DNA from: Escherichia coli
GTDB taxonomy: Bacteria; Pseudomonadota; Gammaproteobacteria; Enterobacterales; Enterobacteriaceae
Strand: one strand, 5' to 3'
Assembly: GCF_046105845.1 (NCBI RefSeq)
Contig: NZ_CP151004.1
DNA length: 64,000 nucleotides
In this document: piece by piece, positions 1-33,092 of the stretch
How positions within the stretch are numbered: position 1 is the stretch's first letter
How the letters are laid out: each line of letters starts with the position of its first letter
The notes under the pieces: model-generated
What the model was told of the DNA's origin: nothing
The model's input: only the letters and a program-made list of their open reading frames with translations
Database searches by the model: none
Program-made: the position numbers and the translations under genes

Positions 1-19
1 CCAAAAATAAAGTCCACCG

Positions 20-220
20 TCAGGCAGCCTTGTTATTCTGTTCACCAAGTTCTCTGGCAATCATTGCCGTCGTTCGTATTGCCCATTTATCGACATATTT
101 CCCATTCTCCATTACAGGAAACATTTCTTCAGGCTTAACCATGCATTCCGATTGCAGCTTGCATCCATTGCATCGCTTGAATTGTCCACACCATTGATTT
201 TTATCAATAGTCGTAGTCAT
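20..220 (-). CDS. ral: Restriction alleviation protein Ral
   Basis: 66 aa translation (MTTTIDKNQWCGQFKRCNGCKLQSECMV...) recalled as near-identical to lambda Ral; sits downstream of N in the pL operon. Confidence 0.8.
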   Translation of the reverse strand: MTTTIDKNQWCGQFKRCNGCKLQSECMVKPEEMFPVMENGKYVDKWAIRTTAMIARELGEQNNKAA

Positions 221-352
221 AAGGATAGTCCTGGTATTGTTCCATCACATCCTGCGGATGCTCTTCGAACTCTTCAAATTCTTCTTCCATATATCACCTC
301 AAATAAGTGGTTTGCTGCCAAAACAATGAACCATCCGGAAATTCCAGATAGT

Positions 353-580
353 TCATAATTCACTCTTCAATACTTCCAACTTACTAATCGCCGATAGATA
401 TCCGCGCTGATAGGGCATCATCATTCCTTCGAGCTTGACACTTCTTAACTCCTTCCTGAGCAATTGTATTGCTTGATCAATAACCTCTGCCTTAGCGTCC
501 TTTATGGCTTGCTTGCGGGGCTTTGCTTTCTGCTTTGGCAGATTTCTCAAGCATGATGGAATGTATGTCTGATTCATCAC
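353..580 (-). CDS. Hypothetical small pL-operon protein (75 aa)
   Basis: ORF abutting the N stop on the same strand; basic, helical; no family recognised. Confidence 0.4.
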   Translation of the reverse strand: MMNQTYIPSCLRNLPKQKAKPRKQAIKDAKAEVIDQAIQLLRKELRSVKLEGMMMPYQRGYLSAISKLEVLKSEL

Positions 581-853
581 TTACCTCGCTGTCAGTTGTT
601 TTGATTTCCGATAGCCTGCCGCGTAAATAGCTACGTTTGGCAGGCAAATACTTCCACTGCATTCATCTGCCTTCTTGCAGCAAAGGCTTCCTAGTGATGC
701 TGCTTTGTCTGCTCTGACGCAACCAGAGAGCTTTAGCGCAATTTTTCGCGCCAGTGCTTCATTACTGCGTCGCTCGGCAATAAGTTCTGCTCTGCGAGCT
801 TTGTAGCGGCTTTTTGCCGTACCTTTGGATTCTTTCCAGACAATGGTTACCAT
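581..853 (-). CDS. N: Antitermination protein N (phi21-type arginine-rich motif)
   Basis: Contains GTAKSRYKARRAELIAERR, recalled as the phi21 N RNA-binding peptide; AAGGAG Shine-Dalgarno precedes the second ATG (853), so the 883 start in the ORF track is probably an extension. Confidence 0.8.
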   Translation of the reverse strand: MVTIVWKESKGTAKSRYKARRAELIAERRSNEALARKIALKLSGCVRADKAASLGSLCCKKADECSGSICLPNVAIYAAGYRKSKQLTAR

Positions 854-964
854 GATGGTCTCCTTTAAGTGGCTTTGGCGCATGACGCGTCGAGGTGCTT
901 ATCTTCTCGATCGCTGTCTTGCAGCTGCAATTCGCGCCATCCCCAAAACCACTCAAGTTCTGGT

Positions 965-1003
965 CTCAACGGTTAGGTTGAGAGTCCGTCGATGTTAAAG
1001 AGC
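965..1003 (-). promoter_or_regulatory. nutL: boxA (GCTCTTTAACA on minus strand, 993-1003) and boxB hairpin (965-984)
   Basis: boxA consensus read directly; perfect stem-loop TCTCAACGGTTAGGTTGAGA between pL and N. Confidence 0.65.
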
Positions 1004-1048
1004 CTGCCAATCTGTTCCGTTTGGCTTCCAGCGTCCTGCTGATGGCTT

Positions 1049-1110
1049 AAATTTAAGACTTCTTAATTTATTGGTCAAGTGCATTTTTGAAGAAAACTTA
1101 ATTTTATGGG
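1049..1110 (-). promoter_or_regulatory. pL promoter with OL operators (P22 c2-type half-sites TTAAGA...TCTTAA)
   Basis: Minus-strand -35 TTGACC (1073-1078) and -10 TAAATT (1050-1055) with 17 nt spacing; operator-like dyad ATTTAAGACTTCTTAATT overlaps. Confidence 0.6.
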
Positions 1111-30144: not shown

Positions 30145-30145
30145 A

Positions 30146-30170
30146 AAGGCGAGTCCACGCCCGCCTTTTT
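30146..30170 (+). terminator. Rho-independent terminator after tailspike
   Basis: GC-rich hairpin followed by TTTTTATT. Confidence 0.55.
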
Positions 30171-30203
30171 ATTACCAACAACCATCTCATTTGTGAGGTG
30201 GTT

Positions 30204-31382
30204 TTACTGAAGTTTTCTTCTTGTGTATGTTAGTACATTAAATTTTTTAAACTTACTACACGGTGTCTCAATATATCTAAAACATAGCAATGATATAAGC
30301 GTGATAAACCCAGAGAGGATTATAATAATAGCTGAAAATACAAGGCTGTTAATTTGATTAACATAGCTAACCGGAAGTATTATTTTAAATGTTATAAAAA
30401 GTATAATGCCATGTAGAAGATACATGCTATATGTAGCTTCTCCAAAAACTTGACAGGTTTTTATCTTAAGAACTCCAAAAATATCGCATCCATTTGATAT
30501 CAGAATAAATGCAATACCACAGAGTGATATTGTTATTGGATTGTAAGGATTTGGAATTAAAAAACAAGTTACACATAAGATAACGATGACGAATAAGCTT
30601 GATAATATTTTATTGAAAGGCAAGCCGTTAGGCAGTTTGTGATTTATTTTTGCTGCCAGATAACCAAAAACAAATGATAAAATATGTATTTTTAATGATG
30701 GATAGAAAATAAAAGCAAATACACTCGCAATACTAAGAATTGTGTAAGTATTAAATTTGTCTCTTCTCATTATAAAAGCCATAAAAGGAAGAGATAAATA
30801 AAAAAACCATTCATAAACAAGTGACCACGGAACTCCGGCCATGATAAGCGACGTCTTGTGAAGACCGTTAACATCAGGCATTCCAAGGAAAGAAAAAGGA
30901 ACCCATCTCGCCATAGATATTATGAGATTGGCAATTCCTGTGTTAATTTTCCAATCAGAAACATAGAACACAATTATGAATAGTAGAGATAACGAAACCA
31001 GATACATAGGTGTTAGTCTCATTATTCTTGACCAAAATAAATCTTCCCAATTTACTGATTTATTCGAAATCAATTTCCCGAAGAACAAGAAGCCTGTAAT
31101 CATAAAAAAGAAAATAACAGCTATTTTTCCAATATTAGTATAAAATAACGAATCAGGATCAGACCAAACCCCAGTATGTATGTATTGCCACCAGAAACTG
31201 GAATGATGAAGGAAAACCATTAAAGCAAGAAATCCTCTAAGCCCATCAATTGATTCACTCCTTCCTTTGATAGGTGATAAGTGTGTTTCTGTGACAAATA
31301 TTCTTGCAACCGAAAGTGAAGTAATCACCGATAAAGAAGCAATTAAAAAGCCATTAAATCCGTCAAACATAGAAATCTCCAT
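30204..31382 (-). CDS. oac: O-antigen acetyltransferase, acyltransferase-3 family (Sf6 Oac-like)
   Basis: About 390 aa multi-pass membrane protein with DGLRGFLALMVFLHH motif; very AT-rich; between tailspike and integrase as in Sf6. Confidence 0.8.
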   Translation of the reverse strand: MEISMFDGFNGFLIASLSVITSLSVARIFVTETHLSPIKGRSESIDGLRGFLALMVFLHHSSFWWQYIHTGVWSDPDSLFYTNIGKIAVIFFFMITGFLFFGKLISNKSVNWEDLFWSRIMRLTPMYLVSLSLLFIIVFYVSDWKINTGIANLIISMARWVPFSFLGMPDVNGLHKTSLIMAGVPWSLVYEWFFYLSLPFMAFIMRRDKFNTYTILSIASVFAFIFYPSLKIHILSFVFGYLAAKINHKLPNGLPFNKILSSLFVIVILCVTCFLIPNPYNPITISLCGIAFILISNGCDIFGVLKIKTCQVFGEATYSMYLLHGIILFITFKIILPVSYVNQINSLVFSAIIIILSGFITLISLLCFRYIETPCSKFKKFNVLTYTRRKLQ

Positions 31383-31698
31383 TACCCCTGTGTTTTTTGT
31401 ACAATCAAAGATTTTGTGGGCACTAAGAAAATTAGTGTATATAAACCATGCTTAAATTGCATAAATATTGAATATGGCATCGATGGCTCACTATCCTTAC
31501 GTTATCAAAAAAATGTGTATACCGTGATTATGCTTGATAATTATTTGACCGCAGTGTTGTATAGTCTACTGCTTTCTAATCTACAAGCATCATGGCATAA
31601 ATCCAGTATCTAGAACTAATAAGATTAACAATTGGAGATCACAAGTGATTGGCTTAGTTCACTGAGCCATGCATTGTTACCCTCTGATTAAAGATTAA

Positions 31699-32856
31699 TT
31701 ACTCAGCCTTCCCATCAAGCCAGTCCGCCCACCACTGCATCATTTCTCTGCGCTTATCGAGATACTGAGCATGGTTGTAAATCCCGCGCACAGATCCGCC
31801 GTTGGCATGTGCCAGTTGCACTTCAATAGCATCAGCAGGCCATTCGTGCTCGTTCATAATCGTGCTGAATTCATGCCTGAATCCGTGACCGCTTTCCAGA
31901 CCTTCATAGCCGATTTGTTTGATCACAAGCAATACCGCGTTCTCGCAGATTGGCTTCTTCTTATCGTTACGCCCGGAAAAAACAAACTCTGATACTGGTT
32001 TGGTGATGGAGCTTAGCGTAGTGAGAAGTTCAACCACCTGGTCTGACATCGGGACCACATGAATTTTGCGTCCCTTCATCACATTGGCGTCGATAGTGAT
32101 AATCCTGTTTTCAAAATCGACGTTCTTCCATTGCATGGAACGAAGCTCTTTTGTTCTGAGGGCTGTGTAGCGTAAAACCTTGGTGGCAATGAGCGATACG
32201 ATACTTCCTGAAAATGTTGCCAGTGCTTTGTTGAATGCCGGGATCTGGTCTGCAGGAAGAAACGGGAAGTTCTTCTTGCGGTATCCCTTCATGGCGTCAG
32301 CAAGGTCAGGTGCCGGGTTATATTTAGCCCTACCAGTGACAATAGCGTAACGGAAAACCTCGCCGCATCTTCTGCGGGCTTTGTTGGCTCGCTCCATTGC
32401 ACCGCGATCTTCAAATCTGCGGATTACTTCCAGCAGTTGCATCGGCTCAATATCCAGAATCTCAAGACCGCCGATGATGGGTAAAATGTCGTCATCAAAC
32501 ATTTTGGCAAGTTCAGTTGCATAGCCTACTGACCAGACTTGCTTCTTGTGCTCGTACCATTCCTTGTAAATCGCACTAAAGGAATTGTTGTTAGACGAGT
32601 CCTTTTTCGCCTTTACCGGATCGATGCCAACCGAGATGTCTTTCCTCGCAGTCCATGCTTTATCCCTTGCCTCCTGCAAAGTCATAAGCGGATATTTTCC
32701 TACGGTCAGTATTTTTTCCTTACCGTCAATCTTGTAGCGAAGCTGCCATACCTTTTTCCCGGATACAGGGACATAAAGGTACAGGCCATTACCATCGAGA
32801 AGGCGGTATGGTTTTTCTTTCGGCTTTGCTGCTTCAATCTGCTTAACGGTGAGCAT
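31699..32856 (-). CDS. intS: Tyrosine integrase (IntS-type, argW-specific)
   Basis: 385 aa from MLTVKQIEAAKPKEKPYRLLDGNGLYLYV..., recalled as close to K-12 IntS; ORF-track start 32892 adds 12 codons. Confidence 0.92.
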   Translation of the reverse strand: MLTVKQIEAAKPKEKPYRLLDGNGLYLYVPVSGKKVWQLRYKIDGKEKILTVGKYPLMTLQEARDKAWTARKDISVGIDPVKAKKDSSNNNSFSAIYKEWYEHKKQVWSVGYATELAKMFDDDILPIIGGLEILDIEPMQLLEVIRRFEDRGAMERANKARRRCGEVFRYAIVTGRAKYNPAPDLADAMKGYRKKNFPFLPADQIPAFNKALATFSGSIVSLIATKVLRYTALRTKELRSMQWKNVDFENRIITIDANVMKGRKIHVVPMSDQVVELLTTLSSITKPVSEFVFSGRNDKKKPICENAVLLVIKQIGYEGLESGHGFRHEFSTIMNEHEWPADAIEVQLAHANGGSVRGIYNHAQYLDKRREMMQWWADWLDGKAE

Positions 32857-33017
32857 GGGTAAAAATCCGGTGGGTAAAATTATTTTATCCACTTTTTACC
32901 CGTCATGGAGTGCGGCTGTCAACGATCTGAAGCGAACCATGACGAACTGTGAGTTTCCGGGAGGCTTGATATTCTGGGGATTTTGCGGACTGGTACGGAT
33001 GGGAGCGAACTGATAAA

Positions 33018-33092
33018 TGGTGTCCCCTGCAGGAATCGAACCTGCAATTAGCCCTTAGGAGGGGCTCGTTATATCCATTTAACTAAGAGGAC
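33018..33092 (-). tRNA. argW: tRNA-Arg (anticodon CCU), prophage attachment site
   Basis: 75-nt minus-strand sequence GTCCTCTTAGTTAAATGGATATAACGAGCCCCTCCTAAGGGCTAATTGCAGGTTCGATTCCTGCAGGGGACACCA folds as a cloverleaf; 160 bp from integrase start. Confidence 0.9.

Follow-up and report, generated by a model that had tools for sequence, protein, structure and literature searches.

A mosaic P22-like prophage at argW in Escherichia coli

Early region, replication and lysis

The 64,000-nucleotide stretch of E. coli DNA analysed here (the window) carries, across positions 1–33032, an element whose genes identify it as a lambdoid P22-like temperate podovirus (Lederbergvirus, HK620/Sf6 branch) integrated in argW. 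We compared it gene by gene with HK620, Sf6, P22 and lambda and drew nucleotide mosaic maps. Reading from the left, the first gene wholly inside the window is ral (restriction alleviation; 20–220, minus strand, 66 amino acids), which shares 97% amino acid identity with lambda Ral and 95% with Sf6 gene 35. A 74-amino-acid early-left gene (353–577, minus strand) matches phrog_5305 over its full length, and the exact protein adjoins N in many E. coli prophages. The N antiterminator itself (581–853, minus strand, 90 amino acids; Pfam N_peptide) is 98.9% identical to VT1-Sakai N and fuses a phi21-type arginine-rich motif to an HK620/H-19B-type C-terminal half. Residues 8–29 are identical to the peptide in PDB 1NYB at 22 of 22 positions, whereas HK620 N aligns with the C-terminal 57 amino acids only. 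At nutL (964–1003, minus strand), boxA GCTCTTTAAC is paired with a boxB hairpin, TCTCAAC-CTAACC-GTTGAGA, that is the annotated VT1-Sakai nutL boxB; the boxB elements of P22 and HK620 are unlike it, and P22 homology ends at boxA. The nutR site (2091–2132, plus strand) has boxA TGCTCTTTAA and boxB TTCACCTCTAACAGGGTGAG, the latter one base off the annotated VT1-Sakai hairpin, and similarity to P22 stops at 2102. Both N with nutL and nutR are 97–98% identical in nucleotide sequence to VT1-Sakai regions annotated there as phi21-like, in agreement with the phi21-like N and nut sites of the original prediction.

The immunity genes between the nut sites are of P22 type. The pL/OL operators, together with the terminator that follows c2 (1046–1167, minus strand), align with P22 OL/pL, including AATTAAGAAGTCTTAAATT-type operators. 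The c2 prophage repressor (1168–1818, minus strand, 216 amino acids), with a helix-turn-helix and an S24 self-cleaving peptidase, aligns end to end with P22 c2 at 94% amino acid identity; in prophage L012, 99% identical in nucleotide sequence across this region, the 216-amino-acid gene carries Pfam HTH_3 and Peptidase_S24. OR1–3 with pR and pRM (1819–1898) share 76 of 80 bases with the P22 OR region, and Cro (1899–2084, plus strand, 61 amino acids) is 98% identical to its P22 counterpart. The predicted P22-like c2 and cro thus stand, with near-identical OR and OL, but the gene read as a P22-like c1 is a cII of 933W/VT1-Sakai type (2200–2496, plus strand, 98 amino acids; Pfam Phage_CII, 2.9e-33). 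This lysogeny activator gene, in the nutR–cII block, is 97% identical in nucleotide sequence to VT1-Sakai, and its product gave no BLASTP alignment with P22 c1.

All genes from here through lysis lie on the plus strand. Replication (2529–4880, 91.7% identical in nucleotide sequence to 611R6) comprises a 53-amino-acid open reading frame (2529–2690; 100% to Sf6 gene 42), a gp18/O-like initiator (2677–3507, 276 amino acids; Pfam Phage_rep_O, 79% to P22 gp18) and a gp12 DnaB-type helicase (3504–4880, 458 amino acids; 90% to P22 gp12). The nin region (4954–7236), with full-length PHROG and Pfam matches, holds ninB (4954–5394; 99% to lambda), ninE (5391–5567), a 133-amino-acid gene at the ninX position (5570–5971; phrog_1511), ninF (5964–6140), a phrog_1258 gene (6133–6402), a ybcO-like gene (6402–6692), rusA (6689–7051) and ninH (7048–7236); ninG, ninC, ninD and ninI are absent from it. 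The ybcO-like gene, rusA and ninH are 96–100% identical to HK620, and ninH is only 56% identical to lambda. The late antiterminator Q (7233–7856, 207 amino acids) is 99% identical to both lambda and HK620 Q. Promoter and terminator scans placed pR′ (TTGACT-17-TAAATT) and a leader terminator at 7899–7998 (plus strand), the promoter in a block 96.5% identical in nucleotide sequence to lambda and the hairpin (7961–7989) inside a stretch that aligns with the annotated HK620 qut. Holin S (8290–8613) and endolysin R (8597–9073) are 98% identical to lambda and 98–99% to HK620. The spanins are of HK620 rather than lambda type, with Rz (9070–9537) at 92% versus 62% and the embedded Rz1 (9290–9496) at 99% versus 41%. 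A predicted lambda-like nin/Q/S/R/Rz block is therefore right for ninB, Q, S and R (98–99% to lambda) and for pR′, whereas Rz/Rz1, rusA, ybcO and ninH belong to the HK620 type.

Packaging, virion and second immunity genes

Between lysis and packaging lie a 50-amino-acid open reading frame (9525–9677), a T5orf172/MUG113 GIY-YIG-like protein (9881–10366), a DUF2560 protein (10720–10962) and an hkbN-like frame (10964–11143) on the plus strand, then DUF6953 (11207–11446) and YodC-family (11491–11703) genes on the minus strand. These accessory calls (9525–11703) rest on Pfam and PHROG matches and on the PGAP annotation of the homologous region of E. coli NCTC9104. A plus-strand frame at 11474–11833 had no family match and was judged spurious.

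The small terminase (11730–12257, plus strand, 175 amino acids) matches Terminase_2 (PF03592, 1.1e-39) over profile positions 1–136 of 141 and has the length of the PGAP call in NCTC9104. Its resemblance to HK620 and Sf6 TerS is confined to the C-terminal 17–21%, and it classes by sequence as a third type, neither Sf6- nor P22-type. The head and tail-hub genes that follow (12254–21391, plus strand) are full length and 97–100% identical in amino acid sequence to Sf6 and/or HK620: TerL (12254–13666), portal (13669–15795; 32% to P22), scaffold (15809–16693), coat (16705–17976), a 61-amino-acid frame (18019–18204), gp4 (18179–18661), gp10 (18670–20088), needle gp26 with an Sf6 knob (20088–20936; Pfam Phage_tail_NK for the knob) and gp14 (20936–21391). 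The 61-amino-acid frame apart, each of these is 97–100% identical to Sf6; P22 coat gave no match to the coat protein in the per-gene comparison. Ejection protein gp7 (21394–22086) is 88–94% identical to all three reference phages. In contrast to this Sf6-like block, gp20 (22097–23512, 471 amino acids; 86% to P22 over the N-terminal half, same length) and gp16 (23509–25350; 75% to P22, full length) are P22-like and not Sf6-like; all three are on the plus strand, and a Pfam Inj_translocase match falls among them (21394–25350). The original prediction of Sf6/P22-type virion genes fits TerL to gp14 and fails at the Terminase_2 small subunit.

The position of P22 sieA is occupied by a membrane-anchored coiled-coil protein (25370–25699, minus strand) and a lipoprotein whose lipobox reads LSGC (25818–26237, plus strand); they match phrog_8100 and phrog_6823 over their full lengths, and PADLOC returned no match for either. 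Next comes a complete P22-like immI, as predicted, with mnt (26254–26505, minus strand; 98% to P22), divergent Pant/Pmnt found by promoter scan (26528–26561), arc (26596–26757, plus strand; 99% to P22), the sar antisense RNA (26758–26824, minus strand; Rfam 71.6 bits, full length), ant (26826–27704, plus strand; 54% to P22, Bro-N and P22_AR_C) and a terminator located by scan (27722–27741).

The tailspike and acyltransferase cassette

The tailspike (27805–30144, plus strand, 779 amino acids) begins with a P22-type head-binding domain (amino acids 1–115; Pfam Head_binding, 4e-65), and its nucleotide similarity to other P22-like phages ends at 28148. The remainder is predicted to fold as a β-helix receptor-binding domain: the AlphaFold2 model has a mean pLDDT of 84.9, exceeding 90 across most of residues 190–779. 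Converging on it is an Acyltransferase-3 family membrane protein (30204–31370, minus strand, 388 amino acids; PF01757, 1.6e-28; GC 0.33), a putative lysogenic-conversion O-acyltransferase. This gene had been read as an Sf6-like oac. Sf6 Oac shares the Pfam family but is only 30% identical over 107 amino acids; the closest characterized relative is OacB of Sf101, at 40.4% over 96% of the length, making the enzyme OacB-like instead. The low-GC segment from the receptor-binding domain through the acyltransferase (28152–31697) had no nucleotide counterpart in the collections searched, of phages and of complete E. coli genomes. An E. coli contig of 4.74 Mb at NCBI carries the exact tailspike, and the convergent pair recurs in three other prophage contexts, with Enterobacter and metagenome prophages represented; acyltransferase homologues in other prophages, 65–67% identical, adjoin related tailspikes.

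Family, fold and gene position suggest O-antigen as the glycan bound by the tailspike and modified by the acyltransferase; the O-antigen locus of the host itself lies outside the window. The target could instead be a capsule or other exopolysaccharide, with an acyltransferase that acts on another substrate or serves the host: Foldseek matched the tailspike to CBA120 TSP2–4 and the Sf6 and P22 tailspikes but also to Klebsiella capsule depolymerases, and the Acyl_transf_3 family has many substrates. We consider this rather unlikely. The order of tailspike, convergent acyltransferase and integrase gene places the enzyme where Sf6 has oac, its nearest characterized relative acetylates O-antigen, and P22-like tailspikes with this head-binding domain mostly act on O-antigen, the CUS-3 K1 endosialidase being the known exception.

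Ends, integrity and relationships of the prophage

The integrase (31699–32856, minus strand, 385 amino acids; Pfam Arm-DNA-bind_3, Phage_int_M and Phage_integrase) is 98% identical to K-12 IntS and Sf6 Int. A 16-bp att core, ATGGTGTCCCCTGCAG, at 33017–33032 matches the annotated HK620/Sf6 attP core exactly. It is the only copy in the window and reaches into the 3′ end of argW (33018–33092, minus strand; tRNA-Arg(CCT) by ARAGORN and Rfam). The predicted IntS-type integration at argW is thereby corroborated, with the core, and hence the right end, at 33017–33032 and not at 33035. The left boundary lies outside the window, as had been proposed. On a publicly available contig that agrees with the window at 10,577 of 10,577 and 22,340 of 22,340 bases, the second att core sought upstream appears 4.64 kb away (window coordinate −4640) with 15 of 16 bases matching, and the left and right junctions combined recreate HK620 attP. 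One-base core mismatches are common in prophages at tRNA sites and do not prove competence. The left arm on this contig, which includes the recombination genes missing from the window, carries ral, cIII, kil, erf, abc2, ea22, ea8.5 and a 66-amino-acid TorI/HkaC-like excision factor, the last in a 339-nucleotide block that shares 97% identity with the torI region of K-12. Because the contig supplies the left arm and second core, and the junctions rebuild attP, inactivating lesions upstream find no support. The prophage totals 37,673 bp, of which the window holds the right-hand 33 kb.

We regard the element as a complete and probably inducible 37.7-kb P22-like temperate phage, integrated by an IntS-type tyrosine recombinase at the 3′ end of argW (probability roughly 85%). 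Measured against a homologue or family profile, no gene is shortened and none has internal stops, bearing out the absence of frameshifts and truncations, although such comparisons are blind to missense defects. An alternative is a prophage intact in looks only, having lost one or more essential functions by missense or regulatory mutation: the left core has one mismatch, and defective prophages such as CPS-53 are common at argW. We nonetheless think such hidden decay improbable, given full-length genes relative to close homologues, both att halves with integrase and excision factor, conserved regulatory sites and a length of 37.7 kb, taken as in range for the P22-like genomes used as references (38.3–41.7 kb). 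The repeated changes of module origin, and the finding that no genome in the complete E. coli collection covers at least 80% of either 12-kb test segment, might also point to an assembly chimera or two neighbouring elements. Such an origin is very improbable: each functional module is present once and in canonical P22-like order, one att pair bounds the 37.7 kb, an independent assembly from Logan agrees at every base across the 32.9 kb compared, and the exact tailspike also sits on the 4.74-Mb contig. Comparable mosaicism appeared in all lambdoid comparisons made, which also argues against a chimera.

For a complete temperate phage, homology and analogy with P22 and lambda suggest the following life cycle. 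The c2 repressor would silence pL and pR at P22-type operators and cleave itself upon DNA damage; N of phi21 specificity would recognize the matching nutL and nutR boxB hairpins and extend early transcription; and the 933W/VT1-Sakai-type cII would establish lysogeny. Lambda-type Q, acting at pR′/qut, would permit read-through of the leader terminator into the lysis and virion genes, with the antirepressor under control of the second immunity region (mnt, arc, sar and ant). Packaging would pair the Terminase_2-type small subunit with an Sf6-type large subunit, yielding an Sf6-type virion whose needle bears a knob and whose ejection proteins are P22-like. Adsorption would proceed through the tailspike, its conserved head-binding domain joined to a candidate glycan-binding β-helix. 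Once lysogeny is established, the acyltransferase most likely adds acyl groups to the surface polysaccharide that the tailspike recognizes (serotype conversion), which would block re-adsorption by this and related phages.

Per-gene and nucleotide comparisons uphold the description of a mosaic temperate prophage that draws its modules from the phi21, P22, lambda and Sf6 types, and chance does not account for the pattern. Most modules were correctly listed, but the nearest whole-genome relatives, vB_EcoP-611R6 (64% of window positions 1–25000 at 97.0%) and then HK620 (60% at 95.7%), went unnamed as the backbone. The mosaic resolves into at least 40 segments with differing nearest relatives, and two junctions coincide with conserved boxA sequences. 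The prophage is an ordinary member of a well-described phage group whose sole unusual part is the 3.5-kb host-recognition and surface-modification cassette, with a receptor-binding domain that has no relationship to its counterparts in P22, Sf6 and HK620. Whereas K-12 retains at argW only CPS-53, a 10-kb remnant, the prophage described here is apparently complete.

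Ends of the argW prophage and its place among P22-like phages

Open reading frames, tRNA searches and base composition delimited a dense run of genes, mostly on the plus strand, that fills roughly the first 31.4 kb of the window, with an integrase gene on the minus strand downstream (31699–32856) and a tRNA-Arg(CCT) gene, argW, identified by tRNA search at 33018–33092. Beyond argW lie ordinary E. coli genes (yfdC, mlaA, fadL, fadI/J and others). A single copy of ATGGTGTCCCCTGCAG is present in the window, at 33017–33032, where it overlaps the 3′ end of argW and agrees at 16 of 16 positions with the attP core annotated in HK620 and Sf6; the original prediction had rightly ended the prophage here, with its boundary (33035) set 3 bp beyond the core. 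An exact-protein look-up with the small early gene at 353–577 recovered a public assembly contig, Logan SRR28309099_56 (116.5 kb), that reproduces window 1–10577 with zero mismatches, and the tailspike, used in the same way, led back to this contig, which also equals window 17805–40144. This contig adds 9.6 kb leftward, comprising cIII, kil, erf, abc2, ea22, ea8.5, an excision factor gene and host csc sucrose genes. The excision factor (66 aa, HkaC/TorI-like) lies within a 339-nt block that is 97% identical to the torI region of K-12. A second att core, CTGGTGTCCCCTGCAG, matching at 15 of 16 positions, is present on this contig at window coordinate −4640, and when the sequences flanking each core on its phage side are combined they give the HK620 attP. 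The left end had been placed outside the window, with a second core to be sought upstream, and both expectations were borne out. The integrase is 98% identical to K-12 IntS and adjoins the core in the argW 3′ end, with the second core at the far end, which makes this an IntS/argW element as anticipated. With the left end taken from the identical contig, the prophage (37,673 bp; GC content 46.1%) can now be shown, by its sequence, to be complete at both ends.

In a megablast search of 50,697 phage records, the region fell among the P22-like members of genus Lederbergvirus. The top match among these records was vB_EcoP-611R6 (64% of window 1–25000 at 97.0% identity), and HK620 covered 60% of the same interval at 95.7%; Kapi1, CUS-3 and Sf6 were further top matches. 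The canonical virion gene order, TerS-TerL-portal-scaffold-coat-gp4-gp10-gp26-gp14-gp7-gp20-gp16-tailspike, is preserved between 11730 and 30144, with 13 of 13 genes in single copy and at full length. The tailspike carries a P22-type head-binding domain (Pfam PF09008, 4.3e-65, aa 4–114) that is 98% identical to that of HK620, and its PDB sequence matches are the head-binding domains of Sf6 and P22. The early region follows the lambdoid layout N-nutL-pL/OL-repressor-OR-cro-nutR-cII-replication-nin-Q-lysis. The ICTV guideline for a genus is about 70% genome-wide nucleotide similarity. At 90% or higher nucleotide identity the best references cover 50.2% (611R6) and 47.7% (HK620) of the whole prophage, values whose outcome against the guideline hinges on how the threshold is computed, and mosaic members of the genus show a like pattern. 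The prophage belongs, as one more member, to the HK620/Sf6 branch of argW-using P22-like phages. None of the complete E. coli genomes in the collection covered at least 80% of either 12-kb test segment, so its combination of modules is uncommon; every single piece is common.

The host DNA beyond argW diverges unusually from K-12. Core genes within 33100–63543 are 92.6% (fadL–sixA), 94.2% (smrB–yfcL) and 96.5% (mnmC–pdxB) identical to those of K-12, and the best complete E. coli genomes for this interval, pig O139:H1 strains, reach only 98.0%; together these values suggest a divergent lineage or a recombined region. The yfc chaperone-usher fimbrial operon at 43891–49525 is 72.6% identical in nucleotide sequence to that of K-12 and has an intact usher ORF (882 aa, 44564–47212), of which the K-12 counterpart, yfcU, is a pseudogene. 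A yfdF-like ORF at 35328–36575 (GC content 0.36) encodes 415 aa, its K-12 counterpart 352 aa. The interval 35198–36929 is missing from the assembly GCA_030357955.1, which otherwise has the int/argW side of the prophage (its right arm) and the flank.

Origins and integrity of the prophage modules

The N protein (581–853) is 98.9% identical to that of VT1-Sakai over its full 90 aa, which disposes of a truncated or fused N, suspected from a C terminus unlike that of phage 21. Its residues 8–29 coincide at 22 of 22 positions with the peptide in PDB 1NYB, the phi21 N peptide–boxB complex. The nutL boxB is identical to the annotated VT1-Sakai site and the nutR boxB hairpin differs at one base; VT1-Sakai N is annotated as phi-21-like, and the boxB sequences of P22 and HK620 differ from those of the prophage. 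Judged by the 1NYB peptide and the VT1-Sakai annotation, N and its nut sites have phi21 specificity, in agreement with the original prediction. Seventy-six phage records cover at least 80% of N. With HK620 N the similarity is confined to the last 57 residues, and N is therefore modular in its own right.

To the right of these, the segment at 1051–2102 is of P22 type and is flanked by boxA on both sides. Here c2 and cro are 94% and 98% identical to their P22 counterparts at the amino acid level, the OR region has 76 of 80 bases as in P22 and the OL operators align; nucleotide identity to P22 within immC is only 83.5%. These resemblances suggest the P22 immC type for c2, cro and the operators, as had been proposed. 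The same proposal for c1 failed, as P22 c1 gave no BLASTP alignment with the 98-aa activator of the prophage, a Pfam Phage_CII protein of the lambda/933W cII family encoded in a block 97% identical in nucleotide sequence to VT1-Sakai nutR–cII. Because boxA is a conserved sequence, exchange would be expected there, and the prophage provides a clean and complete example of module exchange with two junctions at boxA. E. coli prophages integrated elsewhere, adjoining sbcB/exoI, also carry the N–c2–cro–cII block (99% nucleotide identity), and it is found paired with other replication modules (a Toprim-type primase-helicase); in further prophages the neighbour of the 74-aa gene is an immunity region of a different type, RexAB-bearing and lambda-like (comparison sequences L012–L021).

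In the nin, Q and lysis region, ral, ninB, Q, S and R are 97–99% identical to lambda at the amino acid level (Q, 99%; S and R, 98%); rusA, ybcO and ninH are of HK620 type (96–100%); and ninG, ninC, ninD and ninI are absent from the prophage. The lysis cassette departs from that of lambda in Rz and Rz1, which are 62% and 41% identical to the lambda proteins versus 92% and 99% to those of HK620. A lambda-like origin predicted for nin, Q, S, R and Rz accordingly stands for ninB, Q, S and R and falls for Rz and ninH. Late control is of the lambda Q/qut type, with a Q orthologue, a pR′ promoter whose hexamers (TTGACT-17-TAAATT) are those of lambda and which sits in a block 96.5% identical to lambda in nucleotide sequence, and then a late leader terminator (7961–7989) consisting of a 13-bp stem and a T-run that begins about 35 nt past the pR′ −10 hexamer.

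The virion genes from TerL through gp14 are of Sf6/HK620 type (97–100%), with the knobbed needle of Sf6, and the head and packaging proteins TerL, portal, scaffold and coat are 99–100% identical to those of Sf6 at the amino acid level. The P22 portal is 32% identical, and the P22 coat and TerL gave no match to their prophage counterparts; gp20 (86%) and gp16 (75%) are nearer to P22 than to Sf6. The virion genes had been assigned to an Sf6/P22 type, which describes these genes and not TerS. This small terminase is of a third type that matches Pfam Terminase_2 over the full profile length; only its C-terminal tail resembles the TerS of Sf6 and HK620, the last 21% aligning with Sf6 gp1 at 61%. 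The prophage shows that a TerS DNA-recognition domain is swappable beneath an Sf6-type TerL. In the P22 genome (AF217253), a stretch of 246 nt at 22496–22741, upstream of ORF80, resembles the 5′ end of the prophage TerS gene (window 11731–11980) at 74% identity; P22 itself has a different small terminase, and the stretch looks like a fossil of an earlier TerS exchange. Two minus-strand genes inserted directly upstream of TerS (11207–11703), encoding a DUF6953 protein (79 aa) and a YodC family protein (70 aa), oppose the direction of late transcription.

The predicted immI region is present in all its parts: mnt and arc (98% and 99% identical to P22 at the amino acid level), a full-length sar RNA (Rfam 71.6 bits against a cut-off of 43), a divergent Pant/Pmnt promoter pair (26528–26561) and an ant gene whose product is only 54% identical to P22 Ant, the N-terminal part having been replaced (Bro-N plus P22_AR_C). 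Between the lysis and packaging genes, a 161-aa T5orf172/MUG113 (GIY-YIG-like) protein (9881–10366) stands where HK620 has its KilA-like gene and P22 has ORF201. A PADLOC search of the accessory ORFs for anti-phage defence returned nothing above noise, the T5orf172 protein being marginal (E = 4e-4). Two accessory genes at 25370–26237 hold the position of P22 sieA; one encodes a membrane protein with an N-terminal anchor and a coiled coil (25370–25699, minus strand) and the other a lipoprotein (lipobox LSGC) that has a weak PEGA-like match (25818–26237). Both are candidates for superinfection-exclusion functions, with no PADLOC match.

Every gene is full length relative to a close homologue or family profile, with no internal stops, which upholds the earlier view that the prophage has no frameshifts or truncations; three apparent problems were resolved. 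A frameshifted TerS was considered on account of overlapping plus-strand ORFs at 11474–11833 and 11730–12257 and rejected, as the match of the second ORF to Terminase_2 starts at profile position 1. In NCTC9104 (PGAP annotation) TerS has the same length, 175 aa, with two small minus-strand genes upstream, and the ORF at 11474–11833, for which we found no family match, was judged spurious. Loss of the late terminator was suggested by the absence of the annotated tQ segment of HK620 from the window, yet a strong terminator is present at 7961–7989. The c2 product of 119 aa called on the Logan contig reflects the start codon chosen by the gene caller, the ORF being 216 aa and aligning with P22 c2 over its full length. 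Given full-length genes, both att halves, int, the excision factor and no IS elements in the prophage, its sequence offers no ground to doubt that it would be competent.

The tailspike–acyltransferase cassette

Similarity to all P22-like references ends at 28148, where the tailspike head-binding domain ends, and returns at the int stop codon. The 3.5-kb segment between them (28152–31697; GC content 0.33–0.40) codes for the receptor-binding domain of the tailspike and, convergently, for an Acyl_transf_3 protein. Nucleotide searches with this cassette drew a blank in 5,426 complete E. coli genomes and gave, in the phage collection, nothing but one weak match of 102 bp; its relatives were found by protein-level searches. 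The tailspike falls in a 78-member cluster at 90% identity from E. coli, E. albertii and S. flexneri assemblies, and the exact protein, WP_409023864.1, is encoded on a 4.74-Mb contig. The same right arm (27790–35197, 98.3% nucleotide identity) is found in E. coli GCA_030357955.1, joined to another backbone that has a P22-type coat and lacks arc and ant, the break lying just upstream of the tailspike start. One metagenome contig in IMG/VR matches the right arm at 99.2% over a 6-kb stretch. The next-nearest homologues of the receptor-binding domain (54–55%) and acyltransferase (65–67%) again form adjacent convergent pairs, in prophages of Enterobacter hormaechei and a metagenome (comparison sequences L011, 6001–9412, and L023, 4003–7441). 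The neighbours of these pairs are siphovirus-like and include a 930-aa product, an NlpC/P60 protein and a tail protein of 825–834 aa.

An AlphaFold2 model of the tailspike (mean pLDDT 84.9, above 90 over most of residues 190–779) retrieved beta-helix tailspike depolymerases in Foldseek, comprising CBA120 TSP2–4, Sf6, P22 and Klebsiella depolymerases. The acyltransferase had been labelled an Sf6-like oac, a name unsupported past what it shares with Sf6 Oac, the family (PF01757) and the place between tailspike and int: the two align at 30% over 107 of 392 aa (E = 1e-5), and the nearest characterised relative is Sf101 OacB (40.4% over 96%). The original prediction was largely right in what it observed and its interpretation holds; four of its module labels need correction.

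We infer, as the simplest reading, that tailspike and acyltransferase are a co-inherited pair in which one would recognize a surface glycan and the other would modify it. More tentatively, with a probability of roughly 0.4 for the reading as a whole, the cassette could be a self-contained unit for recognizing and then modifying the receptor, with uncharacterized O-antigen recognition and serotype-conversion chemistry, that moves between the unrelated chassis of Escherichia P22-like podoviruses and Enterobacter prophages with siphovirus-like tail genes. The pair, as yet uncharacterized, could give E. coli, E. albertii and Shigella a new lysogenic-conversion modification and could set a new O-antigen specificity, which would matter for serotyping, for predicting phage host range and for finding depolymerases.

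Comparison with known phages and prophages

HK620 and 611R6 use the same integration site and att core as the prophage, whose Int is 97% identical to that of HK620. HK620 further shares rusA, ybcO, ninH, Q, S, R, Rz, Rz1, TerL through gp10, gp14 and gp7 (92–100% at the amino acid level) but differs in immunity (cI 42% identical, with boxB and the N arginine-rich motif unlike those of the prophage), replication genes and TerS, and has only immI remnants, none functional; the prophage needle is of Sf6 rather than HK620 type. The receptor-binding domain and O-antigen modification gene of HK620 and 611R6 are unrelated to those described here. Sf6 has TerL, portal, scaffold, coat, gp4, gp10, the knobbed needle and gp14 at 97–100% amino acid identity, an Int at 98%, the same attP core and the same layout of tailspike, convergent acyltransferase and int. 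It departs from the prophage in its immunity, which is 434-like, in its N, of lambda type, and in its Q, of phage 21 type and accompanied by two tRNA genes; it also has a different TerS and no immI, and its gp20 and gp16 are only 45% and 34% identical.

P22 has the same overall gene order and similar gp12 (90%) and gp18 (79%), but its types of coat, portal and terminase are replaced in the prophage by those of Sf6, and it differs in N/nut, c1, endolysin, integrase and att site, gtrABC and the tailspike receptor-binding domain. VT1-Sakai matches in N (98.9% at the amino acid level) and in nutL, nutR and cII (97–98% at the nucleotide level). No virion, replication or immunity genes of lambda are found in the prophage. 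Sf101 OacB and Sf6 Oac resemble the acyltransferase in being Acyl_transf_3 membrane proteins encoded between tailspike and int in Sf6-like prophages but are too distant for transfer of substrate or position specificity; its closest homologues (65–67%), in Enterobacter and metagenome prophages, are uncharacterized. The cryptic prophage CPS-53 (KpLE1) of K-12 occupies the same argW site and core, with IntS at 98% and the TorI-type region at 97% nucleotide identity, but survives only as a 10.2-kb remnant that contains pseudogenes and gtr-type conversion genes, whereas the prophage described here spans 37.7 kb with every module present.

P22-like prophages at argW (HK620, Sf6, CUS-3, Kapi1, IME10 and 611R6) and their patchwork genomes are already well documented; the present one adds no new principle and its practical value is modest. 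Kapi1, a temperate phage of E. coli, reportedly integrates into argW and modifies the O-antigen. Tailspikes are modular, with receptor-binding domains described in one study (PMC10408124) as horizontally transferred across phage genera. The prophage is in line with both patterns, and the tailspike–acyltransferase cassette is the sole part of it that is out of the ordinary.
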